The notes beneath the pieces are model-generated. The model searched no databases, had not been told where the DNA came from, and saw only the letters and a program-made list of their open reading frames with translations. The position numbers and the translations under genes were made by a program. Below, piece after piece: positions 30,897-63,026 of a stretch of 64,000 nt of DNA. This DNA comes from an uncultured Gammaproteobacteria bacterium. GTDB lineage: Bacteria; Patescibacteriota; Microgenomatia; Levybacterales; GWA1-39-11. The stretch spans positions 601 to 64,600 of the forward strand of contig CAZYWG010000009.1 of the NCBI GenBank assembly GCA_964651815.1, read 5' to 3'. How positions within the stretch are numbered: the stretch's first letter is position 1; every line of letters begins with the position of its first letter.

Positions 30897-31610
30897 ATGC
30901 AATCAAGGCTAGCACGAAGATCAGTAAAACAAAGTAAAAATCAGTTGTATATTTCACTCGCGGGGATTGTAGTTGTTTTATTCCTAGCAATCAATTTTGG
31001 GCCTTCTGTAATAGGTGGGGCGGGGAATATAATAGACAAAATTACTGGAAAATCAGGGCTGGATGCAATAGTTAAATCAAACGGACAAGTTCAACCCCCT
31101 ACTCTAGATCCCCTTCCTCAAGCCACTCCAAGTGCAACAATTAATATCAGCGGGAAAACAGATTATCCGAATGGTAATGTTGAGCTTTTTGTAAATAATT
31201 CTTTATCTGATCAAACAAAAGTTGAAACTAATCAGACCTTTAACTTCAAAGAGGTAAATCTAACCTCCGGTAACAACGCTATTAAAGTAAGAATGGTAAT
31301 CAATGACCAAAAAAGTGATTTTTCCGGTGAAGAAGATGTTATGTATACAAAAAATGCACCTAAGCTCGACATTTCAAACCCGCAGGACAAGCAAAATTTT
31401 ACAAAGGCCGACCAGCAAATAGTAGTTAACGGTACCACAGATCCTGATAGTTCTGTGAGAGTTAACGGTTTTGTGGCGATTGTAGACAATCAGGGCAACT
31501 TTTCTTACAATTTAGGCTTAAACCAAGGGGATAATAAAATTGCAATTGTTGCAACCGGTGCATCAGGTCAAACTACTGAGAAAGATCTTACCGTTTCATA
31601 TTCACCGTAG
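30897..31610 (+). CDS. Membrane-anchored hypothetical protein with two Ig-like repeats
   Basis: An N-terminal TM helix and a Pro/Thr linker (QPPTLDPLPQATPSAT) are followed by the two repeats ...ISGKTDYPNGNVELFVNN... and ...VNGTTDPDSSVRVNGFVAIVDNQGNFSY... Confidence 0.5.
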   Translation: MQSRLARRSVKQSKNQLYISLAGIVVVLFLAINFGPSVIGGAGNIIDKITGKSGLDAIVKSNGQVQPPTLDPLPQATPSATINISGKTDYPNGNVELFVNNSLSDQTKVETNQTFNFKEVNLTSGNNAIKVRMVINDQKSDFSGEEDVMYTKNAPKLDISNPQDKQNFTKADQQIVVNGTTDPDSSVRVNGFVAIVDNQGNFSYNLGLNQGDNKIAIVATGASGQTTEKDLTVSYSP

Positions 31611-32787
31611 CACCAATTATGATAAATACCCACGCAAGAATTAAAGTATAGAAAAGAGTGTTAATAAATAGTGAATTAAACATTAATGCGCAAAGAATTG
31701 GAAATGCCGCAACTGACAAAACATTTTTTTCTGAAATTCTAGTCTTCAAGTTTTTCATAAGTTCAAAAATAAAAACTATAAAAGCTATAAATCCTATAAC
31801 TCCAGTTGTCGCAAGAATTAAGAGATACGAATTATCTGTACTGGCTGCAGAATTATTAGGTATATCAGAGATATCGCGACTGTATCCATATCTTAGCTGG
31901 GCATAACGGTATGCACCAAACCCAACACCTAAAATTGGATTTCTTCCAACTATTGAAAGGGCAACTCCTGCCGAGTCAACTCTTTCCAATGCTGAAAAAG
32001 TTCTAAACGGATTTAATCCCTCAACCGAGCTATTTGAAAAAGCCAACAATAGTACCGCAAGAAGTATAATAACAGGATAAATTATTTTGTTTTTATTAGA
32101 TACTATAAGAAGAATCACAATTCCTACTATCATTGATAAGAATGCCGATCTTGAGTAAGTTAAATATATTGAAATAAGTGTAAATAAACCTAAGAAAGCT
32201 AATAACGCAGTCATACGAAGATTCGCCTTCCTAAAATAATAGAGAGTGCTACACGTGATTAAAATTAAAACAAAAACCATAAATATTCCGGCAAAGTTTG
32301 GGTCTAGCATTGTTGAAAAAAGGCGGTATAGATGATCATCCCATCCTGCATAATGTAAATTTTTTAAGTTTGGGTAAAAGAAATATTGCAAAAGACCCAA
32401 AAAAGCAAATAATGCGCCTGATGCTATAAGCTTTAAATGCAAAGTGGAAAGAAATTTTTTGTCCACAAACTGAAGTGCAAATATTAATGAATAATAAGAA
32501 GCCAATCGGATAAAATACAATAATGCGACAAAAAATGATAATCCGTTTAAGTGTGGAATATTAACTACCAATGATAGTAAACATGCAGACAAAAAAATTA
32601 AGAAGTATTTAAAGAGTCCCCTGTTTATTATTTTCTCTTTTTTGAATAATACTTTATAGAAAGTAACCAAAAAAATAATCCCCACTATTATGTCGTGTAT
32701 ATATAAAAACGCACCTGGAACAATGCTGATTCTCGTCAGCACTCCCAGCGGCAAAATGAAAGTCAATAAATTAATTAAGAGGCTCAT
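31588..32787 (-). CDS. Wzy_C-family membrane protein (O-antigen ligase or O-oligosaccharyltransferase-like)
   Basis: About 10 TM helices, with YSRSAFLSMIVGIV followed by a periplasmic loop RNPILGVGFGAYRY...SAASTDNSYLLILATTGVIGF. That loop resembles the Wzy_C R...G.G.G...H.N.YL motif. Confidence 0.55.
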   Translation of the reverse strand: MSLLINLLTFILPLGVLTRISIVPGAFLYIHDIIVGIIFLVTFYKVLFKKEKIINRGLFKYFLIFLSACLLSLVVNIPHLNGLSFFVALLYFIRLASYYSLIFALQFVDKKFLSTLHLKLIASGALFAFLGLLQYFFYPNLKNLHYAGWDDHLYRLFSTMLDPNFAGIFMVFVLILITCSTLYYFRKANLRMTALLAFLGLFTLISIYLTYSRSAFLSMIVGIVILLIVSNKNKIIYPVIILLAVLLLAFSNSSVEGLNPFRTFSALERVDSAGVALSIVGRNPILGVGFGAYRYAQLRYGYSRDISDIPNNSAASTDNSYLLILATTGVIGFIAFIVFIFELMKNLKTRISEKNVLSVAAFPILCALMFNSLFINTLFYTLILAWVFIIIGATVNMKR

Positions 32788-34325
32788 TTTTTGGAATATA
32801 GCTTAACACTTGTCCTAATATTTTGGTATTTTAACTTCCAATTTTGATAATCATTAGGAACCTGTCCCCTTATCAAAACGTAGTTAAAAAAATCCCCTTT
32901 TTTGTACCATGAAGAGTCAACAAATGGAAAATCCGCATAGTAAAGATTGTGGACATTGTAAACTAATACTTTATCACTCTTCTTAATGTTTTTCTTGAAG
33001 TATCCATCTATATCATAAAAATCGCCGAATGAAAAATTTAGGTGGTCCGTCAAAAACTTATCATTTGGTTCAATTCCCAAAATAACTGGGGTATACTTCA
33101 TGTTTGCGGCTCCACGGTAAACTATAGATACAATTGAAACTACAATAATTAGCGCAATTGAATATTTAAGTACAAATCTATCTTTCATGTAGGATAGTGA
33201 AAGTGCTACAAGTACGGAAAACGTGGGAAGATATGCCATAATAAACCTTCCACCACCGCTTTGTGGTGCTAAAAACCAGATGATAAACGAAATTACTGAG
33301 TAAACAACCAAGATCTTACCACCAAGCTTCATTTTTTTTAGACCAAGTAAAACAATTGGAAAGGTTATTAAATACACCGGTGAGATTGGATCGGCGCTGA
33401 AAAGAAAATTCAAAAAATTTGAAAAATGAAAATCCGGCGAAACTGGATAAATACCACTAAAAAACGGGTAGAAAGGGTTTTTTGTTGAAACGTAAGAGAA
33501 TATAAACCAAGGAAGTGGAACTATCAAAGATATAATCACATATAGAAAAGCGTGTTTTATGGACTTTCCAAAAAAGAGCGCCAGAAGTAAGAAAGTTGCA
33601 ATATCAAGTCCTGAAAAAAGCTTTGTTGTTATGGCAAGACCAAGACATATCGATGAAAAAATCAGGAACCTCACGTTTTTTTTCTCTATATAGATCAAAA
33701 AATAGAAAAGGGCAAAAATTTCAAAAAAAGTCCTACCAAGGTCAACGTATGCCGTGATTGACTGCCATCCAACTACTAAGTTCGAGTAGAAAATAACAAT
33801 TGCAAGTAACGATAGCTTTGGTGAAATAAATTTTCTACTTAACTTATAAATTAGTATTAACGTTCCTAATCCAAAAAGAAAGTGAATAAATTTAGCACCG
33901 GTTACAAAACCCGTTACCAAAACGGGAATATATAACATTTCAACAAGTTTTGGCATGTCAGAATAATAAAAAAGTCCGCCTGAAATGTGAAATATTTTTC
34001 CTTCTTGTAGAAAGATTTTGGGAAGCGTTAAGTGGTACCATAAAGCATCAAATCCAGTCTCAGGGCCTAATACACCAATAAGATTAACTAATATTTGTAC
34101 TAAAACGATTCCTAGAAGAAATTTTTCGAGAGGGGTAAGATCTTTGAGCCACTTTTTAATATTTCCAAAAACTGATATAGAGAAATTTTTCCATATAAGA
34201 ATTGTCACAAGTGTTACAAATATAAATGTGAGTGCTAATATATTTACTGTAGTTAAGGCATGAATTATACCAAGGAAGAAAATTACATAAGAGTATAATC
34301 CAATTAATAACGGCACTAAAAACAT
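32784..34325 (-). CDS. GT-C fold membrane glycosyltransferase (PMT/ArnT-like)
   Basis: More than 10 TM helices. The first periplasmic loop reads GPETGFDALWYHLTLPKIFLQEGKIFHISGGLFYYSDMPKLVEMLY, carrying the acidic and PPL-like motifs. Confidence 0.5.
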   Translation of the reverse strand: MFLVPLLIGLYSYVIFFLGIIHALTTVNILALTFIFVTLVTILIWKNFSISVFGNIKKWLKDLTPLEKFLLGIVLVQILVNLIGVLGPETGFDALWYHLTLPKIFLQEGKIFHISGGLFYYSDMPKLVEMLYIPVLVTGFVTGAKFIHFLFGLGTLILIYKLSRKFISPKLSLLAIVIFYSNLVVGWQSITAYVDLGRTFFEIFALFYFLIYIEKKNVRFLIFSSICLGLAITTKLFSGLDIATFLLLALFFGKSIKHAFLYVIISLIVPLPWFIFSYVSTKNPFYPFFSGIYPVSPDFHFSNFLNFLFSADPISPVYLITFPIVLLGLKKMKLGGKILVVYSVISFIIWFLAPQSGGGRFIMAYLPTFSVLVALSLSYMKDRFVLKYSIALIIVVSIVSIVYRGAANMKYTPVILGIEPNDKFLTDHLNFSFGDFYDIDGYFKKNIKKSDKVLVYNVHNLYYADFPFVDSSWYKKGDFFNYVLIRGQVPNDYQNWKLKYQNIRTSVKLYSKK

Positions 34326-34330: not shown

Positions 34331-35839
34331 TTAAGTCTTGAAAACTATAAAAACTTTATTTTTAAAAACTTCTTTTTGCTTTTGTATAAATCTGGATAAC
34401 TTTGATTCATTTAGGTAATCGTTTTGAACTATTATATACTTAACTTGTTTGTTTTTAACTTCTGTAAGAATTACATCATCAGAATATTGATGCCAAAGCG
34501 GAGGAAAATAAATTATATCACTGGAGGGGTCCCGTCTCTCAAGAATAAAATATAGTTCAGGATAATAAGGGTACGCAAAAACATAGTCATTTTTTTGGGT
34601 TCTTGAATTTATGAAATTTGCGAGAGACATTATACCGTCTGCAGTTATCTTGTCAGTCTGAATTCCTTTTGTCCTTGGAAGATTTATAAAAGTATTTTGT
34701 GCGCTATAAGGCGGATGATAGCGATAATACTCACGGAAAAGAGTAAGGTAAAAACCTATCATGATCATTAAAGATATCATTAGAATGGCAAGTATATTCT
34801 TTTTTTGGTTGCTAATAAAAATTACCATTGCCAAAATAATGCTTCCCCAAAATGGATATACATGCAACAATTCGCTATTTGGGTAAATATAAGTAACAAA
34901 TCCCACAAGAGGAACTATAAACACTGACAGCAATTTCCAATTCTTATCTTTTAAAAATCTCCAAATAACAAAAAATGCAAAAATATAAGGTAAATAATAC
35001 GGTAACAGTTTAAGAATACCTGCGGGTTGTAAAATATAAGACAGAGGGGGATATGTAAAACCAAATTGAGTTGAGAATTTTCTGCTAAAATTTATAAACA
35101 TTAAGAGTCCAACAATATTGTCTTTCAAAAAAAAATAGTAAATCCAGAAAAACGACAACATCAATAATACTGAATCTAGGACTAGTAGGTTTTTTATTCT
35201 CTCAGACAGCTCTAATTTCTTTGAAAAAAAAACTAAAAAATTTATAACTAATATGAAGCCTAGACCTAAATTCTGGCGTACAGAAAATGATAAGGCAAGA
35301 AGCGTTCCAATTATGATTAGGTATATAAAACTCTTTTTACTTCTCGAATCGATCCAAGAGACAAAAACATATACTAGAATTTGAGAAATTAAAACCTCTG
35401 GCCAAACAGCAAGTGGAATATTAATCAATGGATACCCAAACGCTACAATTCCTAAAAAAGAAAGCAATATTATTTTAAAAGACGTCAGCTTTAGTATATT
35501 GAGGATTAAAAAAGTAAAACAAACAACAAGCGAACATACCAAAAGATTTAGACACCTCCCCACAATTATTGAAAATCCGAATACTTTATAAAGTAGCGCC
35601 AATAGGTAAAAATAGGCCGGGGTATATTGAAGCGCAAAATCTTTATACGGAATTTCTCCCTTTGCTATCCTTTCTGCTGCGTGCAATGTATATCCTTCGT
35701 CAAATAGATCAAGACCTTTGTTTGCAAAATAAAGGTAATAGAAAAATGCGGCAACAATAAGCGCTACTTCAAACAATAAATATTTTTTTGTTTTAACTAC
35801 AGATTTAAAAAGTGCTTTGGGGTCACTAAATGATATCAT
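34331..35839 (-). CDS. GT-C fold membrane glycosyltransferase (PMT/ArnT-like)
   Basis: The first loop reads GLDLFDEGYTLHAAERIAKGEIPYKDFALQYTPAYFYLLA, matching FDE.RY...G...PPL.YW of ArnT/PMT. At least 10 TM helices. Confidence 0.55.
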   Translation of the reverse strand: MISFSDPKALFKSVVKTKKYLLFEVALIVAAFFYYLYFANKGLDLFDEGYTLHAAERIAKGEIPYKDFALQYTPAYFYLLALLYKVFGFSIIVGRCLNLLVCSLVVCFTFLILNILKLTSFKIILLSFLGIVAFGYPLINIPLAVWPEVLISQILVYVFVSWIDSRSKKSFIYLIIIGTLLALSFSVRQNLGLGFILVINFLVFFSKKLELSERIKNLLVLDSVLLMLSFFWIYYFFLKDNIVGLLMFINFSRKFSTQFGFTYPPLSYILQPAGILKLLPYYLPYIFAFFVIWRFLKDKNWKLLSVFIVPLVGFVTYIYPNSELLHVYPFWGSIILAMVIFISNQKKNILAILMISLMIMIGFYLTLFREYYRYHPPYSAQNTFINLPRTKGIQTDKITADGIMSLANFINSRTQKNDYVFAYPYYPELYFILERRDPSSDIIYFPPLWHQYSDDVILTEVKNKQVKYIIVQNDYLNESKLSRFIQKQKEVFKNKVFIVFKT

Positions 35840-36692: not shown

Positions 36693-38921
36693 TTATTTTA
36701 CCATGATTTGATCATTTATAACTTTTATTCTTTCGCTACCCTCAATTACATATATTTTAGTTTTGACAGGAAAAGTGATAGGCGGATTATTACCAAGCCA
36801 CCAAGTTAAATACTCATAATTTGCGGTTGAACTGGCAAATTGTTGTCCTGGGCCTTTAAAAACCAGATTGTATCCCTGCCCTTTTGCAATTTTTAAAATT
36901 TGCTTTGATGATTCAATTCTGCCCGCAAGTCCATATAGAGTAGTATTATTCGAACTTACAAAAATAAACAAATTTAAGAAAACTATCGATAATATATAAA
37001 ATGTAGAGATGAAGACTTTAAACTTATTTACAGCTAGAACAAACAAAATAAGTAATATTGGGAATATCATTGGTAAATACGCGTCAGATGGCGTTTTTAT
37101 AGCAAAATACCCAACCATAGAAATTAATCCGGTCAAAAAAATCACTGATTCCGCTGACTCGAATTTATCACGAATAAAAATCCAGCCAGCCGAGACAAGA
37201 CTTAAGACCAACAACGCAAGTGAAATTACATAATTAGGAAATAAGAGATTTTCGTACTTTTCAACAAAAAAATTAAAAACAGACACATAGCTATGATTAT
37301 CCATGCTACTTCTCCTAAAGATTCCAACAAATTGAAGAATTTTATAACCTATCCAAAGTACAAACTTCAAAGTCTGGGGAAATCCGTGTCCTAAATCATA
37401 AAAAATAAATGGCGTCATGGGAGTTACAATACTAAGGAGTGAAAATAAAGCAAATTTTTTATTAACAACCCCCTTCACATATTTTTTCTTTCTTGCAAAA
37501 CCTAATGTGATATAGAAAACAATGACAGCCAAAAAAATTGAAGTTGCAATCTCAAAGTTGTAAAGAATTACCACTAGCATCAATACAACTGGGAGGGCTT
37601 TTACATTTAATTTTACAACCCACTGGAGCATAAAAAAAACAATTAGTAGTGTAAACAGTGGAATTGGACTTGTATGATACGGCATTTTGGAATACTCTAC
37701 TAAAATAGGCGAGGTAGCATAGACTAGTGAAGCAAAAATACCGACTTTTTTTGTGAAGAAAGTAGAACCTATCTTGTAAATTACAAAAATTGCCAAACAA
37801 TCAAGAAGTGCAGCTAAATATGCGCCTGAAACCGGATTAAAATTTGAGACTAGTAAAGCTCCAGCAAGTAAATACGTCCAAAAAGCACCTTGATGCAGCC
37901 ATGGATGACTCGAGGCAATTCCAACCAGAGGAAACTTACCATGGACAATAATATCTCTTGCCGATAAATAAAACCACGCTTGATCACCAATAAAAGTCAT
38001 GTTGCGAGAAATATCAAATAGTCTCAAAAATAAACCCGTTAAGATTACAAGTGAGAGGATCACGCTATATGTTGAAATAGATAATATAAAAGATACAATT
38101 ACAGCCCAGGTCAACCCGTAATTTTTTTTTAAATAGTAAAAGCGGCTTTCGTTAAATATTTTGCTTATATTTTTGTCACTTTTCTTTGTACTCTCCCCCC
38201 ACGCATGGTACACTTTAGCGTTAGAAAGCATGACTATTTTGTATCCAAGCACTTTTACTCTTTTGCACAAATCGTGTTCTTCAAAATACAAAAAAAAATT
38301 CTCATCAAAACCTCCTATTTTTTGAAAAATTATCTTTCTAATTATGAATGCAGACCCTGGAACGCTATCCACTTCCCGCACAGATTGCTTCATCCAATCA
38401 CTTCTCCAATATTTTTTAGAAATTGGGTTACCAGGAAAAATTTTATTAATAAGTGAAAATGCAAAAATGGCGCTTATCGGAGTTAATGTTCCAAACCCTT
38501 GGAGTGGATAAGGCTTGTCATTAATATCATAAAGTGTAGGGGCAGCTATTGCAGTATTTTTATTTCTTTCTAAATTATTTAACAATAATTTTATACTATC
38601 ATTCCGGATTATAGTGTCCGGATTTAAGAAAAATAAATAATCCCCTGATGCAGACTTCGAACCAACATTACATCCGTTAGCAAACCCACGGTTTGTATTA
38701 GGTATGTAGATCGTCTTTGGGAATCGTTGTTTTAAGTCTTTGGAAATACTTTTTACTTCATCATTATCTACTACAATAACTTCAAGCTTTATATTCTCAC
38801 CAGTACTTTTATAGATTGAATTGATACAAGTTAACAAAAGGTTCTTAACATGATAGTTAACTATTATTATAGAAATTCTAATCTTAGATTCACTTTTCAT
38901 GTTATTTCTTCTTGTAAACAA
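36693..38921 (-). CDS. Fusion protein: N-terminal GT2 domain plus C-terminal GT-C (PMT/ArnT-like) membrane domain
   Basis: The N-terminus ISIIIVNYHVKNLLLTCINS...VIVVDNDEV...FFLNPDTI is GT2. The C-terminus has 12 or more TM helices with GDQAWFYLSARDIIVHGKFPLVGIASSHPWLHQGAFWTYLLA. Confidence 0.65.
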   Translation of the reverse strand: MFTRRNNMKSESKIRISIIIVNYHVKNLLLTCINSIYKSTGENIKLEVIVVDNDEVKSISKDLKQRFPKTIYIPNTNRGFANGCNVGSKSASGDYLFFLNPDTIIRNDSIKLLLNNLERNKNTAIAAPTLYDINDKPYPLQGFGTLTPISAIFAFSLINKIFPGNPISKKYWRSDWMKQSVREVDSVPGSAFIIRKIIFQKIGGFDENFFLYFEEHDLCKRVKVLGYKIVMLSNAKVYHAWGESTKKSDKNISKIFNESRFYYLKKNYGLTWAVIVSFILSISTYSVILSLVILTGLFLRLFDISRNMTFIGDQAWFYLSARDIIVHGKFPLVGIASSHPWLHQGAFWTYLLAGALLVSNFNPVSGAYLAALLDCLAIFVIYKIGSTFFTKKVGIFASLVYATSPILVEYSKMPYHTSPIPLFTLLIVFFMLQWVVKLNVKALPVVLMLVVILYNFEIATSIFLAVIVFYITLGFARKKKYVKGVVNKKFALFSLLSIVTPMTPFIFYDLGHGFPQTLKFVLWIGYKILQFVGIFRRSSMDNHSYVSVFNFFVEKYENLLFPNYVISLALLVLSLVSAGWIFIRDKFESAESVIFLTGLISMVGYFAIKTPSDAYLPMIFPILLILFVLAVNKFKVFISTFYILSIVFLNLFIFVSSNNTTLYGLAGRIESSKQILKIAKGQGYNLVFKGPGQQFASSTANYEYLTWWLGNNPPITFPVKTKIYVIEGSERIKVINDQIMVK

Positions 38922-52977: not shown

Positions 52978-52978
52978 C

Positions 52979-55567
52979 TTATCTTTTTTCATAAACTCCA
53001 ATTCCATCAGGATAAACAAATAATCCAAGATACGGATAATAAAAGAAGCTATCAAAGTATTTATATAAAGGGAGTTTTAAAGGAAAATAAGCAACTCTGA
53101 AGTAACCTATTCTTTGAAGTTTTTTTACAAGATCAGACTTCAGAGAAATTTTGTAAAACATTTTTTCGTATTGAACATTTGAAATCACTACATATTTAGG
53201 TAAGACTTTTGTTTTACTGTCGATAACAACATAATTATATCTTGTTTTAAAATTGGGATGATATTGTTTTTCGTAAAATTCTTTAAGGACAAAATCTGGC
53301 TCAAATTGGTATATGGGAATGTTCTCTAGTCCAATAACAGACTTTTCTGGGATATTATTCACTATCCAAGCCGAGGAAGTCTGTTCCGGGGATGGGGAAA
53401 GCTTCATCCCAACCCATAGGTATGATTCAAATATTTGAATAAACATTAGTATCACCAAAAAGATATAGAAAAATATTTTTAGAAATTTCGTTTTGTATGT
53501 AGATTCGATCATATTTTTGAGGGCTAATGCATCTATGGTTACTAAAAATGGCAATAAGACCACAGACCTATTTGCGCTAATTGTTATACCTAGTGGAACA
53601 TAACTTAAACAAAATACTAAAAATGACAATAAAATGAACAATTTTTGTTTTAAATCTTCAGTCCGCTTTTGCTTAAAATCTTTAAAGATTAGGTATGCAA
53701 AATAAAGTATTAAAGGTATGCTCACAAAATATAACTCATGTCCAAATATCGCGGGCAACTTATGAAGTAGAGTTAAATCTGTCAGTGAGTATTTGGATGG
53801 GAAATTTCTTAGAAGAAGTGAGGGACCACTAACTATATTACTATATATATATTCAAACATACTCTGCCCTCTAAAAACTACGTCTGGAAGCCCAAAAAAA
53901 ACAGAGACAACAAAAAATATAAAAACTCCTAGTGCTAGACTCAAATATTTTTTGCTTGACGAAGCCATAAACATTAAATAAGAAACAGGCACAAGTATCA
54001 GCAGGGGTATAGCGCTTACTTTAACAGCAAACGAAAACCCGGAAAATGTGCAAGCCAAAAGGAAGTTTTTCTTATTTGGAGTCAAAGAGAATTTAAGAAA
54101 ATAATAAAATGAAAGTGCAACCCAAAATGTGAGTGCGATATCATATTTAAAAAAATTGCTGATTACAAGCCAGGCAGGTGTAAAAATAAACAGGAGCAAT
54201 ATAAGTATTGAATTTATTTTTAACAACTTTGCGATTTGCCTCATGGTTATTAACGTCAAAACCCCAAAAAATAGGGTTAGAAGCCTCAGAACTATGAATA
54301 ATTTTTCCTGCTCAAATATTGAGTCAACTGAAGATTTAATAGCAAAAGGATTAACAATATGTGTTATATAAAAAGGAATCAGGAGAATTCCCGATATAAA
54401 AAAGTTAAACATTGTCCCATTTGCAGACCCTGACAAATTTGGCGTACCGTATTTGAATACATCTCTCACTGCTTGCATCTGGTGCCATTCGTCCATTTGA
54501 TATGCGAAAGGATGATATTGATTAGGTATTCCAGAGGTAATAACCGAAATCATCGTAATAATATAAATGGTAACCAAAATAAATAAAACACTATTACCCT
54601 TAACTACACTTTTAAGATTTACTTTCATAATTAATCTAGTTAATCCGAGAGACGTTCCAATCAAAACAGCAAGATCTGAGGTTATTTGGAGAAGAGGCAA
54701 AATAGTAAATGCTCGCAAATCTTCAACATATTTGTAATTTTTCTTGACTGCCCACAATACATAAACTACCGTTGCGATTAATATTAACATTAAAATAATA
54801 ATTGATTTAAGAAGTAATGCAATAACTATTAGATATGCGTAAAAAATATATCTTACGTAAATCAAAATGACTTTATCTCTAACTATTCCTGACTCCGCAT
54901 CACCTAATGCAAATCTAAAGAACATGACAAAGGCTTGCCAAATATTTTTTCTTGGAGTCCAGTAGACAATAGCGTCTTTCACAAAAACAATTTTTGAATT
55001 TGCCCTCTTTAAATTGTTTGCAAAAACATAATCTTCATTATGAGAATATTCTTCATCAAATCCATGAATTTTCTTCCAAATACTTTTTTTAAACGCAACA
55101 GATCTGGCTGCCGGAAGAAATTCTGATTCAACAATCCTGTCAGGCATCACAAGAGCATACGGAATCACGCATTTTTGAAAAAAGGTCTCGGAATTTCCCT
55201 TATAATATCCGGCGACAACATCAACCGTCGTATCACTGAATGGTTTAATAATATTCTTAACCCAATTTTTGTCGAGAGTATTGCCAGCATCAGAGCAAAG
55301 AATAATATCACCTGTCGCTTTTCTAATCCCTTCGTTTCTTCCGACTGAACGATTTCCCGGTTTGTTAAGAAGTTTAATAGTTGGATTCCTTACTTTATTC
55401 TTTAGAAGGTAGTCTTTAACAATTTTGACCGTTGAGTCGCTGCTTCCCCCATCTACGATAATAAATTCGTCCGGCAATTTTGATTGGCTCAGCACCGATT
55501 TAATAAACCTCAAAATTGTGTTCTCTTCGTTATAAATCGTTACAATAAGAGATAACTTGGTTTTCAT
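52979..55567 (-). CDS. Fusion protein: N-terminal GT2 domain plus C-terminal GT-C-like membrane domain
   Basis: The N-terminus LSLIVTIYNEENTI...IIVDGGSSDST...SDAG is GT2. The membrane domain has at least 14 TM helices, with the loop YQMDEWHQMQAVRDVFKYG. Confidence 0.6.
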   Translation of the reverse strand: MKTKLSLIVTIYNEENTILRFIKSVLSQSKLPDEFIIVDGGSSDSTVKIVKDYLLKNKVRNPTIKLLNKPGNRSVGRNEGIRKATGDIILCSDAGNTLDKNWVKNIIKPFSDTTVDVVAGYYKGNSETFFQKCVIPYALVMPDRIVESEFLPAARSVAFKKSIWKKIHGFDEEYSHNEDYVFANNLKRANSKIVFVKDAIVYWTPRKNIWQAFVMFFRFALGDAESGIVRDKVILIYVRYIFYAYLIVIALLLKSIIILMLILIATVVYVLWAVKKNYKYVEDLRAFTILPLLQITSDLAVLIGTSLGLTRLIMKVNLKSVVKGNSVLFILVTIYIITMISVITSGIPNQYHPFAYQMDEWHQMQAVRDVFKYGTPNLSGSANGTMFNFFISGILLIPFYITHIVNPFAIKSSVDSIFEQEKLFIVLRLLTLFFGVLTLITMRQIAKLLKINSILILLLFIFTPAWLVISNFFKYDIALTFWVALSFYYFLKFSLTPNKKNFLLACTFSGFSFAVKVSAIPLLILVPVSYLMFMASSSKKYLSLALGVFIFFVVSVFFGLPDVVFRGQSMFEYIYSNIVSGPSLLLRNFPSKYSLTDLTLLHKLPAIFGHELYFVSIPLILYFAYLIFKDFKQKRTEDLKQKLFILLSFLVFCLSYVPLGITISANRSVVLLPFLVTIDALALKNMIESTYKTKFLKIFFYIFLVILMFIQIFESYLWVGMKLSPSPEQTSSAWIVNNIPEKSVIGLENIPIYQFEPDFVLKEFYEKQYHPNFKTRYNYVVIDSKTKVLPKYVVISNVQYEKMFYKISLKSDLVKKLQRIGYFRVAYFPLKLPLYKYFDSFFYYPYLGLFVYPDGIGVYEKR

Positions 55568-55700: not shown

Positions 55701-57542
55701 ATGAGTTTATTTTATTCACTATTCGAAAATATTGTAAAAAAAATAAACTCAATAAAATCTGACTTTGTAGGATTTTCTATCAACCCACATATCTTTTTAA
55801 TAGTATTAGTATGTTTCTCCTTTTCACTTTTACTTACTTTCCTATCTTTTTCTCTCGGCAAAAAAATATCCTCGCAATTTAAACTGGAGTCAAAAAATGA
55901 TTATGAGTACTTATTTTTTACGGCCGTTGGCTACGTCTTAATTGGCAGCGGAATTGCTATCCTAGGTTTATTTTCAATATTAAATTTTAGCTACATTACT
56001 TTGTATTTAGCGCTTATAATTGCTTATTCATTTTTCTTCCCATTTTCATTAAGACAAAACTCAATTTATTTCTATAGACATTTAAAAGCTGACTACAATT
56101 ATTTAAAACAAAACAAGTTCGTTTTTATATGGGTGACTCTTTTCATATTGATTGCAATATTAAACTTGGTCAATCCGGAAGTAAGAGAAGACCAATACCA
56201 TGTAGATTTACCTGTCATATATTTAAAACACCAAACTATTATGATTCCGCCCCATGAGGTAATTAAAGTGTCTGCAAGCCCACTTTTAGGAGAAATGTAC
56301 TACATCCCAGGAATTTTGTATATATCTCGTGAATCTTCAAGATACATTCATTTTATTTTTTATATATTAGTATTACTCACACTCATAAATTTTTCTAAAT
56401 TAAAGAAGTATAAATTTGCTATTTATACACCGTTAATTTTTATTACTGCTCCTGTTGTCATTCATGAAACGTCGGCAATGTACGTGGATTTTGAATGGAT
56501 ATTTTGTTTTTTGTTATCGGTTCTAGTTTTAACGGATCAAAAGAACAATAAACTTGCGATTTTAAAATCCGGCTTATTATTTGGTGGAATGCTCGCGTCT
56601 AAATTGTGGACTATAGTTTTTTTGATTCCTTCTATTTTTTATTTGATAACTGAAAAGCTAAAAAAAATTCAGAAGATTAAATACTTGCTTGTTTTCTTAT
56701 TTTCAGTTTTAGGCATAACTTCCATATGGTTTATAAGAGCTTATATATTGACCGGGAATCCCATATTCCCTGCTTTCGGAAGTACAGAAAGACCTTTTCA
56801 TGCAGATTTGGTGAAATCTTTTTTAAGTTTTGCAGGAATCAACTATGCTTTAATTAACATTCCGTCTTATATTAATGTATTTAGCCCATTATTTTTTTTA
56901 AGTCTTTTATTTCTAGTATTCAAATTAAAAGACACTGTCAAACTATTTTTTGATCTAAAACTCTTTAAGTACTTACTTTTCTTGACTGTCTTATATTTGA
57001 CAATTCACTATCCTTTTGGAAGATATTTGCTTGGATTATATGCGCTCTTTATTTTTTTGAATGCCTTCGTAATACATAACTTCATAAAATTTACTTGGTT
57101 CAAAATATTTTTTAACTTAACTTTAGTAATATTGTTTTCCTATTATTTTGTAAATTCTTTGCTTGTTTTACCCTACGCTTTTGGAATCTCCGACCAGAAT
57201 AAATATTTGTCTAGAATTTTTGTAAGGGACAACTCGAGTTACTATGATTTTGGTCATAAATTTGAAAAATACATTTCCCCAAAAGATAAAGTGGCAATGT
57301 TTAACTTTCACGGATATTATTACGCTAATTTTGATTACACAGATGTTTATTTCATATTTGATAATAATCAAGCATCTCTTGATTCGCTAAAAGTTAAAAA
57401 GTATACAAAACTTCTTACTCGTGGAGGAGATATAAAATGGATGTGTAGCCAGCTGAACATAAAAAATTTCAATTATTCAGGCTTTCGGCTTATTTCTACA
57501 TACTCTGACTTCCCAAGTTATTATTTGTATAATATCAACTAA
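55701..57542 (+). CDS. Polytopic membrane protein, putative GT-C fold glycosyltransferase
   Basis: At least 12 TM helices. The loop NPEVREDQYHVDLPVIYLKHQTIMIPPHE resembles the first-loop motif of the paralogues. Confidence 0.4.
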   Translation: MSLFYSLFENIVKKINSIKSDFVGFSINPHIFLIVLVCFSFSLLLTFLSFSLGKKISSQFKLESKNDYEYLFFTAVGYVLIGSGIAILGLFSILNFSYITLYLALIIAYSFFFPFSLRQNSIYFYRHLKADYNYLKQNKFVFIWVTLFILIAILNLVNPEVREDQYHVDLPVIYLKHQTIMIPPHEVIKVSASPLLGEMYYIPGILYISRESSRYIHFIFYILVLLTLINFSKLKKYKFAIYTPLIFITAPVVIHETSAMYVDFEWIFCFLLSVLVLTDQKNNKLAILKSGLLFGGMLASKLWTIVFLIPSIFYLITEKLKKIQKIKYLLVFLFSVLGITSIWFIRAYILTGNPIFPAFGSTERPFHADLVKSFLSFAGINYALINIPSYINVFSPLFFLSLLFLVFKLKDTVKLFFDLKLFKYLLFLTVLYLTIHYPFGRYLLGLYALFIFLNAFVIHNFIKFTWFKIFFNLTLVILFSYYFVNSLLVLPYAFGISDQNKYLSRIFVRDNSSYYDFGHKFEKYISPKDKVAMFNFHGYYYANFDYTDVYFIFDNNQASLDSLKVKKYTKLLTRGGDIKWMCSQLNIKNFNYSGFRLISTYSDFPSYYLYNIN

Positions 57543-57544: not shown

Positions 57545-59329
57545 ATGCACGACCCAGTAAGAATGGTTTTTATAAATGTTATTGCCTCACTTATTGTCTT
57601 ATTTGGAACACTAATCTACAGATTTGTATATCCCAAAAAAAAAGTTAATTTATTCTTTCTTTTTCTCATAATCTCATTCTTACCCATATTAAGCATTTTC
57701 CGAGCCGGCGACTACGAAAGTGGGGACTTTAACATTCATATATATCGCATTATGTCTTTTTATGATTCGCTTTCTGAGGGGCATTTTATGCCCTCGTGGG
57801 CTGCCGAACTCAACGCAACTTATGGTAATCCTCTTTTTATTTTTAACTACTCTCTACCTTATTACGCAATTTGTTTTTTTCATTTACTTGGGGAGAGCTT
57901 CATAAACAGCATGAAAATTTATTTAGGTCTTAACTTATTTCTTTCAGGAATATTTATGTATATGTTAGCTAGAAAACTTATAAAAAATTCGCTCGCAGCA
58001 TTCACTTCTGCCATCTTCTATGTTTTCAATCCATATCATTTAATTGATATTCACTTCAGGGCAACGCTAGGCGAAAGCACCATCTTTACTCTAGTTCCGC
58101 TTCTGCTTTTATTAATGGTCCTTTATTTGAGGGAGAAGAAATTCGTCTATTTGACCGCAGTAGCATTTGTAGGCCTATTATTATTTCTCGCACACCCTCT
58201 TGTAGCAGGAATATTTATCTTTATTTTTGCCTTATTTGCAATATTTTCAGTCAACTTAAAAAAAGATTTAAAAAGCGTCATTTTTATCATTATTGCTTTA
58301 ATCATAGGAGGAATCGGGTCAAGTTACTCGTGGCTTTCATTTATCATTTATTCGCGGTATATGCCGCCTGTGCCCGGGGGCGTTGTTTTTCAATTTGATA
58401 CACCTTCACAAGTTTTATACGCGCCTTGGAGGTTCGGGTTTCTTTTTCAGGGTCCAAAAGGAGAACTCGCCCCCATAATTGGATATACACAAATTTTTGT
58501 AGTCATAGTTATACTTTTTCTTTTCCTCAAACGTAAAATAGCAAAGAAGTTGAAGACCGACTACTTATTTTGGTTATCAATTATGTTTACAATTCTTTTT
58601 TTTATGAGTTCATATTCAAAACCCATCTGGAACTTTTTCCCTTTTTTATTAATGCTTGAAAGCAACCGCTTGTTATTACCTATTGCACTTTGCACGTCTC
58701 TACTCGCCGGATATCTTGCTTTATCCTTTTCAGATTCCAAACGAAAACGAATGTTTATATATACCCTTCTTGTGGTTACGATTGGTTATACAATACTTAA
58801 TTGGGGACATAGAAGGGTAATTCCTCAAATTAATGATGCAGATCTTAGAAAGAATGTTTGGATCAGTACGGTAACAGAGGGCACAACGGCCTATTTCTTA
58901 AATAACAAATGGGCAGATATTAACAATTTTTGGTTCTCAAAAATTCCAAATCAACATTTAGAGATTGTTAAGGGAAGCGGAAAAGTTAAAGAAATAAAAA
59001 GAACTTCCACAGAACATGAATATACTCTGACTTCAGAGACTCCAATTATTATAAAAGAGAATACACTTTTTTATCCTGGCTGGAGGCTCAAAACCAACAA
59101 TAGGCCTGTCAACATTTATCCCGGGAAAAGAGGAGTGATTTACGCAGTTCTTCCAACAGACGCTCATTTTGTTGATTTATATTATGAAGATATTCTTCCT
59201 TACAAAATTTCAAAAATAGTAAGTGCTTCTATATTTGGTATTTTATTGGCGTTAATTTTATTATTCTCTATGGTTAAAGTCAGAAGCACGGGCTTATCGT
59301 TTTTTAAATGGTTTACGTCCAATCCATAA
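57545..59329 (+). CDS. Polytopic membrane protein, putative GT-C fold glycosyltransferase
   Basis: At least 12 TM helices. The first loop reads GDYESGDFNIHIYRIMSFYDSLSEGHFMPSWAAELNATYGNPLFIFNY. Confidence 0.45.
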   Translation: MHDPVRMVFINVIASLIVLFGTLIYRFVYPKKKVNLFFLFLIISFLPILSIFRAGDYESGDFNIHIYRIMSFYDSLSEGHFMPSWAAELNATYGNPLFIFNYSLPYYAICFFHLLGESFINSMKIYLGLNLFLSGIFMYMLARKLIKNSLAAFTSAIFYVFNPYHLIDIHFRATLGESTIFTLVPLLLLLMVLYLREKKFVYLTAVAFVGLLLFLAHPLVAGIFIFIFALFAIFSVNLKKDLKSVIFIIIALIIGGIGSSYSWLSFIIYSRYMPPVPGGVVFQFDTPSQVLYAPWRFGFLFQGPKGELAPIIGYTQIFVVIVILFLFLKRKIAKKLKTDYLFWLSIMFTILFFMSSYSKPIWNFFPFLLMLESNRLLLPIALCTSLLAGYLALSFSDSKRKRMFIYTLLVVTIGYTILNWGHRRVIPQINDADLRKNVWISTVTEGTTAYFLNNKWADINNFWFSKIPNQHLEIVKGSGKVKEIKRTSTEHEYTLTSETPIIIKENTLFYPGWRLKTNNRPVNIYPGKRGVIYAVLPTDAHFVDLYYEDILPYKISKIVSASIFGILLALILLFSMVKVRSTGLSFFKWFTSNP

Positions 59330-60211
59330 CATCTCACCCGGAATATAAAATGTCCATGTTGGTCTTAGTTTAAAAAAAGGATCAACAACTCTCATTATAA
59401 ATTTCCTTAAAGAATATCTGCTTAGGGAATTATCCAAAAGATCACGTGTAGCAACAAATGGAAAAGTTTTAGTCTCTAAGTGCTTAATACCGCTGTTTTC
59501 TGCTAACAAATTAAGACTTTTTTCGGTAAAATATTGAATATGTTGTCCCTGCCAATACCACCAATTTCGTGTGAGAAGCTTGCTTGGTAATGAATTTATA
59601 TCCCCTGTCCAAATCACCAATATTCCTCCGGGTTTAAGAAGTTTGCTAATATACCCCATTTCTTCTCTGGGCAATTCAAAATGTTCAATCACACCAAACA
59701 AAGTTATAACTTCATATTTGCGCCTGGAATTCTTCGAGAGCTCTTTTAATCTTTCACGATGAATTGTTATCCCCTTCTTGCGGGCAATTTCTGAAGACCA
59801 ACGAGATAATTCGAGCCCTTCAACCTTATATCCGAATTTCTTAGATACCGACAAAAATTCTCCTGTTGCGCATCCTACATCAAGAATTGTACCCGAGGAA
59901 ACATAATTTTTAATGTGAGGAAGAATTTTTGCAGCTGATATACTAATTGATACTAAATAATTAAGATACTCCTGATCAATTACGTCCTTATAATTTTTAA
60001 ACATGTCTTTGGGTAAAGGGGAGCAAAAAACGTGCGAACACTCTAAACATTTTACGGCTCTGAAAGTTTTACCTGAGTTCGGAGTCTTCACATACGTAAA
60101 TGATAGTTTTTTAAGATCGATGTTTGATGGATACAGCTCTTGCGTATTTTCTGAATAGCAAACTGGGCATTTATCGTTTTTTTTCTTTTTCAAATTTTTT
60201 GCTTTAAGCAT
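59294..60211 (-). CDS. Class I SAM-dependent methyltransferase with an N-terminal Cys4 zinc ribbon
   Basis: CPVCYS...CLECSHVFC, then ILDVGCATGEFL (motif I) and ITLFGVIEHF. Confidence 0.65.
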   Translation of the reverse strand: MLKAKNLKKKKNDKCPVCYSENTQELYPSNIDLKKLSFTYVKTPNSGKTFRAVKCLECSHVFCSPLPKDMFKNYKDVIDQEYLNYLVSISISAAKILPHIKNYVSSGTILDVGCATGEFLSVSKKFGYKVEGLELSRWSSEIARKKGITIHRERLKELSKNSRRKYEVITLFGVIEHFELPREEMGYISKLLKPGGILVIWTGDINSLPSKLLTRNWWYWQGQHIQYFTEKSLNLLAENSGIKHLETKTFPFVATRDLLDNSLSRYSLRKFIMRVVDPFFKLRPTWTFYIPGEMLWIGRKPFKKR

Positions 60212-60254: not shown

Positions 60255-61367
60255 TTATTTTTTCCACAAATGCACGTACATAGAAACAACCTTATTCCAA
60301 GTTTGAGCCTGAACCCACCCATACCCAGCTTCGATTTTTTGACGCTCTGCCTCTGGATGTTCAATATAATATAGTAAGTCACGCACGAGAGCCTCGGAAC
60401 TGCCTGAGATTGATATGTATTTTGCAAATGGAGACATTCTAAGGTAATCTTCTTTTAAAGGATTGTCATAGAGCGCAAAAACCATTCTTTTTGAGGCTAA
60501 AGCCTCTAGTATTGAAAGGTATCTCGAAACAAAAGCAAACCGGTATGAAACAAGAAGTTTTTCTGGGTTCTTTACAAACCCAAGCACGTTAGAATATTTC
60601 TGAACTTTTTGTTTAAATTTACCGTCCCCTGCTACAACAAAATCAAATTTTGGAAACGTCTTTCTAATCTCACCTACCGCGCCACAATACTCTAGGATAC
60701 CAGTTTGTTCATCCAGCCGCCCAAAAAAAAATGCACTTTTTTTGTTTTTTTTAAAACTTTGAACTTTTAAATTTGAACTTTTAACTTTTCCCACTCCGCC
60801 GTATGATACAAAGTCGGGTTTGGCATAATACCATTTTTTCATAAACGATCCTATGCAAATTGACCCGTATGATAAAAATTCCGACAATTTTCTAACGATG
60901 ATTGCTTTTTTTTTGACCGGGAAACTTTCATATCCATGGAATGTTGTATAGACCTTTTTCCAAAAAAGTAAAACACGGAAAGGGAGGTACCAAAAGAAAA
61001 CATCATGGCATTGAATTATGTCCGAATCCAAAACAACAGGAAGCACTTTTAACATTTTCAGCCATATCCTGAATTTTTTAAACCAATCGTCTTTTCCAAA
61101 ATTTAGTCTGATGATTTTTATTTTATCAAGCTCAAAAAAATCATTTTGGATTGATTTGACGGGCTGTCTTGTTTTACCATCAGCACTATCACTTCTGCCT
61201 ATTGACTGATAACCTATGCTTTTGCTATGCTGATTTTTTGGGGGAAATTCCGTGACTACAGAGACCTCATATCCTTTTTCAATTAATATTTTTGCTACTT
61301 CCAAACAGTGCTTCTCCACCCCACCAATCTCAGGATAGAAGCGTCTCGCCAAAAATAAAATTTTCAT
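60255..61367 (-). CDS. Glycosyltransferase family 4 (GT-B)
   Basis: MKILFLARRFYPEIGGVEKHCLEVAKIL N-terminal domain. Confidence 0.7.
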   Translation of the reverse strand: MKILFLARRFYPEIGGVEKHCLEVAKILIEKGYEVSVVTEFPPKNQHSKSIGYQSIGRSDSADGKTRQPVKSIQNDFFELDKIKIIRLNFGKDDWFKKFRIWLKMLKVLPVVLDSDIIQCHDVFFWYLPFRVLLFWKKVYTTFHGYESFPVKKKAIIVRKLSEFLSYGSICIGSFMKKWYYAKPDFVSYGGVGKVKSSNLKVQSFKKNKKSAFFFGRLDEQTGILEYCGAVGEIRKTFPKFDFVVAGDGKFKQKVQKYSNVLGFVKNPEKLLVSYRFAFVSRYLSILEALASKRMVFALYDNPLKEDYLRMSPFAKYISISGSSEALVRDLLYYIEHPEAERQKIEAGYGWVQAQTWNKVVSMYVHLWKK

Positions 61368-61386
61368 GAATTCTGCGGGCAGACAG

Positions 61387-61458: not shown

Positions 61459-61592
61459 TCAATGCTCAAACATTCTACCAAACTTATGGTCATATTTCTA
61501 TTTTGGGCATCAATTTGAGACATTGGCCTATATTGACAATAGAATTTATACTTTTCTTCTGTTAAAATCAACGAAACGATCTTATTCCGAGC

Positions 61593-63026
61593 ATGACAAA
61601 AACTCTCATCCTCATACCTACGTACAATGAATCAAAAAACGTTGAACTTCTTTACTATGAGATTAAAAAGAATAAAATTAAATCCGATATTTTATTTGTT
61701 GATGACAACTCCCCGGATGGAACTTCCAAAATAATCGCCGCACTTGCCAAAAAAGACAAATCTGTAAAGTTGCTTACACGCAAAAGCAAGCAAGGAATTG
61801 GAAGCGCCCACAAAGCAGGCATAGATTACGCATACAAAATGCATTACCAAACTCTTATTACCATGGATTCTGATTTTACCCATAAACCCAAGGACATCTT
61901 GAAATTTATGGCCCAGAAAAACCACGCAGATATAATTGTAGGTTCACGATATCTTGCAAAAGATAGCCTGTCTGACTGGAATTTTTTAAGGAAAGCACTT
62001 ACTGTTACGGCCCATTTCCTTACAAAAACCATTCTTTCAATAAAATATGATGCGACGGGCGCTTTCCGCCTATATAATCTGGACAAAATTCCTCAAGACG
62101 TATTTAAATTAGTTGAATCAAATGGCTATTCATTCTTTTTTGAAAGCCTTTATATCTTGCTTCTTAATGGCCTCAAAATTAGGGAGGTTTCAATAAGTCT
62201 CCCTGCAAGAACTTATGGTTCTTCAAAAATGAGTCTGAATGACGCTTGGAAAAGCCTTACTTTTCTCTTCCAAACTTACTATTTGTCAAAAATCTACAAG
62301 GATTCTTATATATACTCGCCACAGTTTATGCCTGCCAGAAAACTCAACGAAAAAGGTGAGGACGAATGGGACGAGTATTGGCGGACGGAAAGAAAAAAAA
62401 GGAAGGTGCTATATGACGCTCTAGCCGTCTTTTATAGAAAGTACATAATCAAACGTACACTCAATCATTACTTGACTAAAACGTTCAAAAAAGGGGCATT
62501 TCTGCTTCACGCAGGCTGTGGCGGCGGCCAGGTGGATGAAGATGTGGTGAATTACGCCAAAATAACGGCTCTAGACATATCCATTGAAGCATTAAATAGG
62601 TATAAATGGCTTTACAAGAATAAATGCAAGGTTGTACACGGCAGCATTTTTAAGATTCCATCTAAAAATCAAAACTTTGATGGGATATATAACTTAGGAG
62701 TTATGGAGCACCTAACTGACAAAGAAATAAAAGTAACACTTGATGAATTTAATAGAATACTTAAAAAGAATGGTAAAATTCTCCTCTTTTGGCCTCCGGC
62801 TTTTGGAGCCAGTGTCCTTTTTTTAAACACAGTCCACTTTATTTTGAATGGGATCCTTAAAAAGAATATACGCTTGCATCCGCACGAAATTACAAAAGTT
62901 ACTTCAAGAAAACAAATCGGCAATATCCTTGCTCGTTCGGGTTTTGAACTTGAAAAATTTGACTTTGGGCCGAGAGATTTCTTTACATATACCATAATTG
63001 TGGGTAAAAAATTATATAATCGTTGA
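61593..63026 (+). CDS. Fusion protein: Dpm1-like GT2 (polyprenol-phosphate sugar synthase-like) plus a C-terminal class I SAM methyltransferase domain
   Basis: The N-terminus LILIPTYNESKNV...FVDDNSPDGT...TMDSDFTHKP is GT2 of the DPM/GtrB type. The C-terminus FLLHAGCGGGQ...ITALDIS...LGVMEHL carries MTase motifs I to III. Confidence 0.65.
   Translation: MTKTLILIPTYNESKNVELLYYEIKKNKIKSDILFVDDNSPDGTSKIIAALAKKDKSVKLLTRKSKQGIGSAHKAGIDYAYKMHYQTLITMDSDFTHKPKDILKFMAQKNHADIIVGSRYLAKDSLSDWNFLRKALTVTAHFLTKTILSIKYDATGAFRLYNLDKIPQDVFKLVESNGYSFFFESLYILLLNGLKIREVSISLPARTYGSSKMSLNDAWKSLTFLFQTYYLSKIYKDSYIYSPQFMPARKLNEKGEDEWDEYWRTERKKRKVLYDALAVFYRKYIIKRTLNHYLTKTFKKGAFLLHAGCGGGQVDEDVVNYAKITALDISIEALNRYKWLYKNKCKVVHGSIFKIPSKNQNFDGIYNLGVMEHLTDKEIKVTLDEFNRILKKNGKILLFWPPAFGASVLFLNTVHFILNGILKKNIRLHPHEITKVTSRKQIGNILARSGFELEKFDFGPRDFFTYTIIVGKKLYNR

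Follow-up and report, generated by a model that had tools for sequence, protein, structure and literature searches.

We analysed a 64,000-nucleotide stretch of DNA (contig CAZYWG010000009.1, positions 601 to 64,600; hereafter the window) from a Levybacteria-type bacterium of the Microgenomates/Patescibacteria. A cluster of genes for cell-surface sugars fills about 31 kb of the window (31588-63026; hereafter the island). Eight genes inside the island and a ninth elsewhere in the window, g1122, are candidates for membrane glycosyltransferases (GTs) of the GT-C class. Genes are named here by their first coordinate (Table 1), and the GT-C half of a fusion protein carries the suffix C. All open reading frames (ORFs) named in an initial annotation of this DNA were found again with the same coordinates and strands. 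The whole Bacillus subtilis genome has three GT-A/GT-C pairs (PMC8035078), so nine GT-C genes among the roughly 58 genes of the window are more than chance would give. Pfam matches were obtained for every other gene class that the initial annotation had placed in the island, namely GT2 and GT4 enzymes, a Wzx flippase, a Wzy_C protein, sugar-tailoring enzymes and methyltransferases. GC content is 29-35% in the island (~32-60 kb) and 36-41% in the left, housekeeping half of the window. The region is probably the main cell-surface glycan biosynthesis locus of this bacterium.

Nine families of GT-C membrane glycosyltransferases

Five of the nine candidates match a Pfam GT-C model directly, and four of these (g32784, g38902C, g52979C and g57545) pass the curated cut-off, which is 26.1 bits for PMT_2, 22.7 bits for PMT and 26.4 bits for PTPS_related. 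The fifth, g36693C, scores 24.0 bits with PMT_2, slightly below. The remaining four (g1122, g34331, g50772 and g55701) have no direct match to a GT-C model. Of these, g55701 is homologous to g32784 (phmmer E 1.5e-16), and orthologues of g1122 and g34331 bear PF13231 (PMT_2), some of them under the name 'glycosyltransferase family 39 protein'; the g34331 orthologues so annotated are 37-62% identical to it. NCBIfam matches, far below the curated cut-offs, link g34331 to the LA_3751/2 putative GT (E 2e-6) and g55701 to the LIC_10190 family (E 3e-6).

Profiles of the nine families were compared all against all using hhalign, with the Wzx flippase as a negative control. All nine are joined in one network, by links with probabilities of 99.9% (g32784-g55701), 99.2% (g1122-g36693C), about 97.7-97.9% (g34331-g50772), 97.3% (g32784-g52979C), 96.5% (g38902C-g52979C), 94.8% (g1122-g57545) and 93.3% (g57545-g52979C). 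Wzx reaches at most 0.6% to any GT-C family, and the Wzy_C protein at most 27%.

The g50772 family profile has no meaningful match among PDB sequences or in Pfam, and its GT-C fold is therefore shown through structure prediction. AlphaFold2 models of g50772 and g1122 are helical bundles. Fold searches with the two models return GT-C enzymes only at the top, with a sharp fall in score to unrelated proteins; the neighbours include Pmt2, Pmt4, ArnT, AftA, AftB, AftD, PimE and ALG enzymes.

The initial annotation had described an acidic motif in the first outside loop (loop 1) of most candidates, followed by a PPL-like motif. The motifs it quoted are present, at residues 403 (WDEMEF) and 435 (HPPLVKYLY) of g38902, 46 (FDEGY) and 72 (YTPAYFY) of g34331, and 312 (GDQAWFY) and 339 (HPWL) of g36693. 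On alignment of orthologues, a loop-1 acidic residue is invariant or at least 90% conserved in all nine families, across orthologues that share only 30-60% identity. Invariant residues are D47 and E48 in the g34331 family, D38 in the g1122 family (with D28 at ≥90%), the D of FDALWYH in that of g32784 (8/8 sequences), ED in that of g55701 (6/6), MDEWHQ in that of g52979 (15/15) and the D of YESGD in that of g57545 (14/14). In the g36693 family the D of GDQ is found in 10/10 sequences, and in the g50772 family D41 and D61 are ≥90% conserved. For g38902 the comparison covers two sequences only, with WDE and HPPLVKYLY both kept in the orthologue from locus L002. The second half of the description fared less well: a PPL-like motif is clear only in some families (HPPL in g38902, HGPLW in g1122, HPWL in g36693). 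Similarly, the nine proteins are indeed polytopic, with a transmembrane (TM) segment count of 8-13 in a crude Kyte-Doolittle scan, and the 10-14 helices given earlier hold roughly rather than exactly.

The eight island genes and g1122 thus encode GT-C(A)-fold membrane glycosyltransferases of nine families. The GT-C assignment of the initial annotation passes both tests that it had set for itself, matches to GT-C families rather than to transporters and a conserved acid in loop 1; Pfam matches, orthologue annotation, hhalign and fold searches agree. That they are instead unrelated polytopic proteins or transporters, with chance motifs in AT-rich hydrophobic sequence, is very improbable. Such a reading could draw on the four candidates lacking a direct Pfam match and on several between-family pairwise comparisons that are insignificant. 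It is opposed by orthologues that carry PMT_2 and by the invariant loop-1 acids, and we reject it on the fold searches, topped by GT-C enzymes only, and on the hhalign control, in which Wzx never joins the network.

None of the nine can be filed specifically as GT39 or GT83. In favour of PMT (GT39) or ArnT (GT83) are the PMT or PMT_2 profile matches of four genes and of the orthologues of two more, the DE-type loop 1 and HPPL motif of g38902, and the place of Pmt4, Pmt2 and ArnT among the top structural neighbours. Here, however, the scores are marginal (24-41 bits), and at their C-termini the proteins have domains with no relation to those of PMT or ArnT. Only g52979 passes the PMT model (PF02366; 29.9 versus 22.7 bits), the others matching the broader PMT_2 model, PTPS_related or nothing. 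Pfam scans of the nine proteins reported no MIR domain; bacterial PMTs are not known to carry this domain either, so its absence alone is compatible with a bacterial-type PMT. As for ArnT, no Arn pathway gene was found in the window, and the similarity of its GT2s to ArnC is weak and sub-threshold. Bacteria of the candidate phyla radiation (CPR) have been described as lacking lipopolysaccharide, which makes a lipid A acceptor implausible.

The Wzy_C protein belongs to another class, GT-C(B) (PMC10920833), and with it the count for the island and g1122 could be ten. It has weak RfaL and TfpM matches.

Fusions, candidate partner genes and the sugar pathway

Three of the GT-Cs are fusions, with an N-terminal GT2 domain in g36693 and g52979 and an N-terminal GT4 domain in g38902. 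By the same crude hydropathy measure, the cytoplasmic GT domain is separated from the loop-1 motif by one TM segment (g36693, g38902) or three (g52979). The number is odd in each case, which places the motif outside the cell in all three fusions. The GT4+GT-C architecture of g38902 was found again in many related loci. The GT2+2TM module of g52979 is separable: in locus L004 (8722-10002) it occurs without a GT-C domain and ends in a homologue of a small membrane protein that in the window accompanies g50772.

This small protein (~80 aa, two TM segments, no Pfam family) overlaps the start of g50772. Its loop has the conserved sequence PPEIGxDK[LI]VG[FY]xQY[FY]GYP[FL]YFD, and it stands directly upstream of the g50772 orthologue in ~20 of 23 loci. 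In L004 it forms the C-terminal end of the GT2+2TM module, which is homologous to the N-terminal third of g52979. It may be a GT-C subunit or a GacJ-like helper. A fusion of this partner to the N-terminus of long (~900-aa) members of the g50772 family was considered, on a motif seen by eye in P0398, P0400 and P0414; a hidden Markov model of the small protein reached only E 0.016 with P0414 and missed the other two, and we do not claim it. The public gene call for g50772 itself (P0001, 575 aa) begins at Met85 of the 659-aa ORF and so omits TM1 and the loop-1 region (D41, W48, PYKD). The longer form is real, because orthologues align from residue 1.

Two stand-alone GT2s adjoin GT-C genes. GT2_380 is next to g1122 and, from this adjacency, is a possible GT-A partner for it; its nearest solved structures are chondroitin synthase and TarS, with DPMS and ArnC scoring lower. 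GT2_35931 is adjacent to a g32784-type GT-C in six loci (L007, L010, L013, L017, L018 and L024). Its nearest solved structures are GmaR (55 bits) and SunS (47 bits), which are protein or peptide glycosyltransferases and not polysaccharide or lipid-phosphate-sugar enzymes. In this comparison with solved structures, which used single sequences and a 13-sequence profile of the N-terminal module of g52979, the GT2 modules match GtrB, DPMS and ArnC at 27-42 bits, below their matches to TarS, chondroitin synthase, GmaR and SunS. A donor-synthase role for the GT2s is therefore putative, suggested by adjacency and fusion.

The tailored-sugar set consists of two C-methyltransferases, an FdtA/RmlC-like cupin, an RmlD-like reductase, an SDR (short-chain dehydrogenase/reductase) enzyme and a WecB-like epimerase. 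This set, with C-methyltransferases of TylC3-like type, points to a C-methylated (branched) deoxy sugar, and possibly N-acetylmannosamine, in the glycan. The NCBIfam matches of these enzymes all fall under curated cut-offs, and we therefore name no specific sugar. The core of a Wzx/Wzy-dependent pathway is present in the Wzx flippase (220 bits) and the Wzy/ligase-type enzyme (64.4 bits).

Table 1. Genes of the island and its borders, and of the g1122 neighbourhood, with coordinates in the window (SAM, S-adenosylmethionine; NDP, nucleoside diphosphate)
Feature	Coordinates	Strand	Evidence
GT2_380: soluble GT2, divergent neighbour of g1122	380..1087	-	Glycos_transf_2 118 bits; no TM segment
g1122: stand-alone GT-C, outside island	1122..2633	+	Orthologues with PF13231
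Membrane-anchored Ig-like (Glucodextran_B) surface protein	30897..31610	+	
Wzy_C protein, GT-C(B) class: polymerase, ligase or O-oligosaccharyltransferase type	31588..32787	-	Wzy_C 64.4 bits; ~11 TM
g32784: GT-C (PMT_2)	32784..34325	-	PMT_2 32.9 bits
g34331: GT-C, sister family of g50772	34331..35839	-	Orthologues with PF13231; D47, E48 invariant
GT2_35931: GT2, 252 aa	35931..36689	-	Pfam GT2 80.7 bits
g36693: cytoplasmic GT2 (~1-260) + GT-C (~275-742) fusion	36693..38921	-	GT2 66 bits; PMT_2 24.0 bits
g38902: cytoplasmic GT4 (GT-B fold) + GT-C fusion	38902..41562	-	Glycos_transf_1 96.5 bits; PMT_2 41.1 bits
NDP-hexose C-methyltransferase, TylC3-like	41678..42943	+	Methyltransf_14 170.8 bits, Methyltransf_13
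RmlD-like NDP-sugar reductase	42943..43809	+	RmlD_sub_bind 59 bits; TIGR01214 57.6 bits, below cut-off
WecB-like UDP-GlcNAc 2-epimerase	43793..44995	+	Epimerase_2 228 bits; wecB TIGR00236 195 bits versus cut-off 210
FdtA/RmlC-like cupin (ketoisomerase or 3,5-epimerase)	44992..45441	-	FdtA 39.3 bits; dTDP_sugar_isom 37.8 bits
SDR-family NDP-sugar epimerase or dehydratase	45447..46394	-	Epimerase 102.5 bits; GDP_Man_Dehyd 69.8 bits
Soluble GT2	46451..47350	-	GT2 109 bits; no TM segment
Wzx-type flippase	47347..48573	-	Polysacc_synt_3 220 bits; ~10 TM
Second NDP-hexose C-methyltransferase, TylC3-like	48676..49920	+	Methyltransf_14 149.5 bits
SAM methyltransferase	50000..50761	+	Methyltransf_31 68 bits
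g50772: GT-C, family without Pfam model, C-terminal extracytoplasmic domain of ~300 aa	50772..52751	-	
Small two-TM membrane protein, g50772 partner	52741..53055 (probable start near 52992)	-	Conserved loop and synteny
g52979: GT2+2TM module (~1-312) + GT-C (PMT) fusion	52979..55567	-	GT2 94.5 bits; PMT 29.9 bits
g55701: GT-C, sister family of g32784	55701..57542	+	phmmer E 1.5e-16; hhalign 99.9%
g57545: GT-C, PTPS_related type	57545..59329	+	PF10131 36.8 bits
SAM methyltransferase	59294..60211	-	Methyltransf_23 94.9 bits
Soluble GT4	60255..61367	-	Glyco_transf_4 34.3 bits
GT2-methyltransferase fusion, final island gene	61593..63026	+	GT2 79 bits; Methyltransf_11 50.7 bits

A Peptidase_S26 (signal peptidase) gene begins at 63067, directly after the island end. 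Further genes were noted in the left half of the window. MurT-like (Mur_ligase_M and MurT_C) and GatD-like (GATase_3) genes stand around a gene for an APH/choline-kinase-like phosphotransferase (11096..14155, + strand); as in Gram-positive bacteria, a MurT/GatD pair suggests that lipid II is amidated. A LysM protein (6867..7472) has a linker rich in Pro and Thr. Between gatB and dnaE lies a gene for a protein with a GGDEF diguanylate-cyclase domain (20747..21529, + strand).

Conservation and age of the gene set

Species-representative genomes were scanned with the g50772 family. This yielded 23 loci, labelled Levybacteria, Levyibacteriota or Patescibacteria, plus one Cerribacteria, and the island is conserved as a reshuffled gene set in about 23 Levybacteria-type genomes. 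Almost the whole island recurs in near-identical order, with 48-84% protein identity, on a 574-kb metagenomic contig (L002). The loci share the gene set in shuffled order and typically have five to seven GT-Cs in 20 kb. Several genomes also share the flanks, with the signal peptidase at one end and, at the other, the Ig-like protein and the atp operon, and in L006, L017 and L024 the Wzy_C gene is at the island edge beside the Ig-like protein and the atp operon. The Ig-like protein (30897..31610) could be a glycan acceptor or merely a conserved boundary gene. The g50772 family is large, with at least 219 clusters (50% identity) at E ≤1e-30 in a library of 1.84 billion proteins.

In a relative, locus L010 has seven GT-Cs together (orthologues of g57545, g55701, g52979, g50772, g38902, g36693 and g32784). 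Locus L026 (1-13518), from a relative with a g1122 orthologue (P0083), is a GT-C cluster denser still than the island, with eight GT-C-type genes in 13.5 kb: three PMT_2, one GT2+PMT_2, one PTPS_related, one YfhO, the g1122 orthologue and a g1122 paralogue. Unlike its L026 orthologue, g1122 of the window is alone with one GT2 neighbour. If the L010 and L026 neighbourhoods share a contig, one relative appears to have at least 15 GT-C genes on 562 kb. Related near-complete contigs measure 0.5-0.8 Mb.

The initial annotation had described the GT-Cs as paralogues in a marked expansion. The multiplicity is real, with paralogy at the superfamily level, but a recent expansion is not what we find. Identity between families is at most 26% or undetectable by BLAST, and each family has its own orthologues, at 35-67% identity, in other Levybacteria-type genomes; the nine are therefore not recent duplicates. 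By these sequence comparisons the multiplicity is old and lineage-wide, and the nine families diverged anciently.

The shuffling of gene order between relatives resembles that of serotype-determining loci. Many of the records with the island are 'binchicken' metagenome-assembled genomes, and those of L007, L008, L010-L012, L014, L016-L019 and L021-L025 carry the title 'uncultured Gammaproteobacteria bacterium', which looks like a placeholder or mislabel in view of their gene content and contig sizes.

Probable extracytoplasmic glycosylation: model, alternatives and meaning

The island is likely, in our view, to be a surface-glycan locus of the Wzx/Wzy_C type in which lipid-phosphate sugars also serve for extracytoplasmic glycosylation. 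Cytoplasmic GTs would assemble an oligosaccharide linked to polyprenyl diphosphate, and the Wzy_C protein would polymerise it or pass it to an anchor. In parallel, GT2 modules would load single sugars onto polyprenyl phosphate; candidates are the stand-alone GT2s beside g1122 and beside g32784/g34331, and the GT2 domains of g36693 and g52979. Once these lipid-phosphate sugars had been flipped, the GT-Cs would draw on them at the outer face and attach residues either to the glycan or to surface proteins, every GT-C having its own linkage or acceptor specificity. The established paradigm joins a GT-A enzyme, a flippase (GtrA- or Wzx-type) and a GT-C (PMC8035078; PMC11127046, for three-component systems of O-antigens). 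The scheme would amount to this Gram-positive logic of multi-component transmembrane glycosylation, repeated about nine-fold and partly condensed into single polypeptides. We favour it because of the loop-1 acids, the topology of the fusions, the Wzx, Wzy_C and sugar genes, the conservation of the unit, the GT-A/GT-C pairing and the paradigm itself.

Several points weigh against the model. The lipid-phosphate-sugar donors, the GT2s that make them, the protein that flips them and the acceptor are all inferred. None of the GT2s in the window specifically resembles GtrB, ArnC or DPMS, whether by single sequence or by the g52979 module profile, and a GT4 (retaining GT-B) domain is an unusual lipid-phosphate-sugar synthase, so the g38902 fusion needs another rationale. 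Neither an initiating phosphoglycosyltransferase (WecA/MraY or WbaP type) nor a GtrA-type flippase was found in a Pfam scan of window ORFs of at least 100 aa, which covered all but seven such ORFs (most nested in or overlapping larger genes) and none of the smaller ones; the initiating enzyme may be encoded elsewhere in the genome. Predicted folds cover only two of the nine GT-Cs, and the NCBIfam matches are all far below curated cut-offs.

Two other systems could be built from the same genes. The island might be an extracytoplasmic assembly line for one complex polymer, in which GT-Cs build backbone and branches sequentially, as AftA-D, Emb, PimE and Mpt do for mycobacterial arabinogalactan and lipoarabinomannan. 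We regard this as possible though rather unlikely. It would suit the many distinct GT-C families (seven together in L010 and an inferred 15 or more on the 562-kb contig of a relative) and an island in whose scanned ORFs no initiating transferase or chain-length regulator was found. On the other hand, Wzx and the Wzy_C protein, conserved at the island edge, indicate a conventional repeat-unit step, and gene content and order shuffled between genomes fit interchangeable decorating modules better.

Machinery for protein O-glycosylation is a doubtful alternative. The GT-Cs would behave as bacterial PMTs or streptococcal Pgf-type GT-Cs do, their targets being Ser/Thr-rich linkers of surface proteins, pilins or S-layer proteins, and the Wzy_C protein would act as an O-oligosaccharyltransferase of PglL/TfpO/WsaB type. 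The Wzy_C family does include such transferases, and the island protein has a faint match to the O-oligosaccharyltransferase TfpM (E 0.05). Among the GT-Cs, g52979 passes the PMT cut-off, g38902 has a PMT-like WDE...HPPL loop, and the best structural matches include Pmt2 and Pmt4; yet polysaccharide- or lipid-directed GT-Cs (AftA, ArnT, ALG enzymes) match equally well, and the Pfam scans of the nine gave no MIR domain. Protein targets would accord with GT2_35931 being nearest to GmaR and SunS, with an Ig-like surface protein conserved beside the Wzy_C gene and with the Pro/Thr-rich linker of the LysM protein. Streptococcal GT-C-dependent glycosylation of Ser/Thr-rich regions is described in 10.1101/2024.05.05.592596. 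Against this, nine enzymes exceed any known protein O-mannosylation system, and the context of Wzx, Wzy_C and tailored sugars is typical of polysaccharide loci. Sequence alone does not settle between protein O-glycosylation, polymer decoration and sequential extension.

The favoured model, a surface-glycan locus with extracytoplasmic glycosylation, has its closest precedents in the multi-component systems GtrA/GtrB/GtrC, CsbB/GtcA/YfhO, Lactococcus lactis CsdAB/CD/EF with CflA, and Streptococcus pyogenes GacI/J/K/L (PMC8035078; PMC11127046). As there, a GT-A enzyme and a polytopic GT-C bearing an acidic outside-loop motif form a candidate pair, with neighbouring genes that lie within or beside a surface polysaccharide locus of Wzx/Wzy type. 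The Wzx-type flippase might play the part of GacK, and the small membrane protein with one module is reminiscent of GacJ. Those systems have one to three GT-Cs per genome, whereas here nine families occur in 64 kb of a reduced-genome CPR bacterium; two of the GT-A/GT-C pairs form single polypeptides, and a further GT-C is joined to a GT-B (GT4) domain. In addition, the scanned ORFs gave no GtrA homologue and the GT2s are not recognisably GtrB- or CsbB-like.

Another comparison is the mycobacterial and corynebacterial set (AftA-D, EmbA-C, PimE, MptA-C, Pmt), with many distinct GT-Cs of one genome acting outside the membrane on polyprenyl-phosphate-sugar donors, which for the present enzymes are putative. 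AftA, AftB, PimE and AftD are among the structural matches, and some members have extra extracytoplasmic domains. Here, by contrast, we saw neither orthology at the sequence level nor DPA/PPM pathway genes; the GT-Cs are clustered with Wzx and Wzy_C genes, and their density per genome is far higher. The fusions have a precedent in WadA (GT121 + GT25; PMC10920833), a single polypeptide in which a GT-C-class domain is linked to a globular GT that depends on nucleotide sugars, so that the same glycan is worked on from opposite sides of the membrane. The GT-C module of WadA is an O-antigen ligase of the GT-C(B) type with a lipid-diphosphate-oligosaccharide donor, whereas the present fusions combine a PMT_2-like GT-C(A) with GT2 or GT4.

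Fold, catalytic motif and pathway logic are known already, and several orthologues are annotated as GT39. What is unusual is how densely the GT-Cs lie (nine within 64 kb, with 15 or more probable for a relative of ~0.56 Mb), the GT2-GT-C and GT4-GT-C fusions, a sizeable Pfam-less GT-C family with a dedicated small partner, and a reduced-genome CPR host. In the literature searched we found no description of such a GT-C expansion; one paper mentions in passing a Microgenomates genome with 29 glycosyltransferase genes (PMC7143001).

CPR/Patescibacteria are a large share of bacterial diversity, and how they build their envelopes and recognise hosts is little understood. The present results suggest that the cell assembles or decorates much of its surface glycan outside the membrane. 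More speculatively, Levybacteria, and perhaps Microgenomates widely, may devote ~2% of a ~0.6-Mb genome to an extracytoplasmic glycan assembly line of 9 to 15 or more GT-Cs, including at least one Pfam-unknown family with a dedicated two-helix subunit and self-contained GT2-GT-C 'through-the-membrane' enzymes. If so, a fused GT2 domain would make the lipid-phosphate sugar that its own GT-C domain consumes outside. In that case the surface glycan would be hypervariable and, like mycobacterial arabinogalactan, made for the most part outside the cell; these episymbionts could rely on it centrally for attaching to hosts or evading phages. For structural and mechanistic studies of donor channelling, and possibly for glycoengineering, the fusions and the Pfam-less g50772 family with its partner offer compact candidates. 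Such bacteria have few genes, yet nine or more distinct GT-Cs are conserved across the class, and they probably depend heavily on extracytoplasmic glycosylation.

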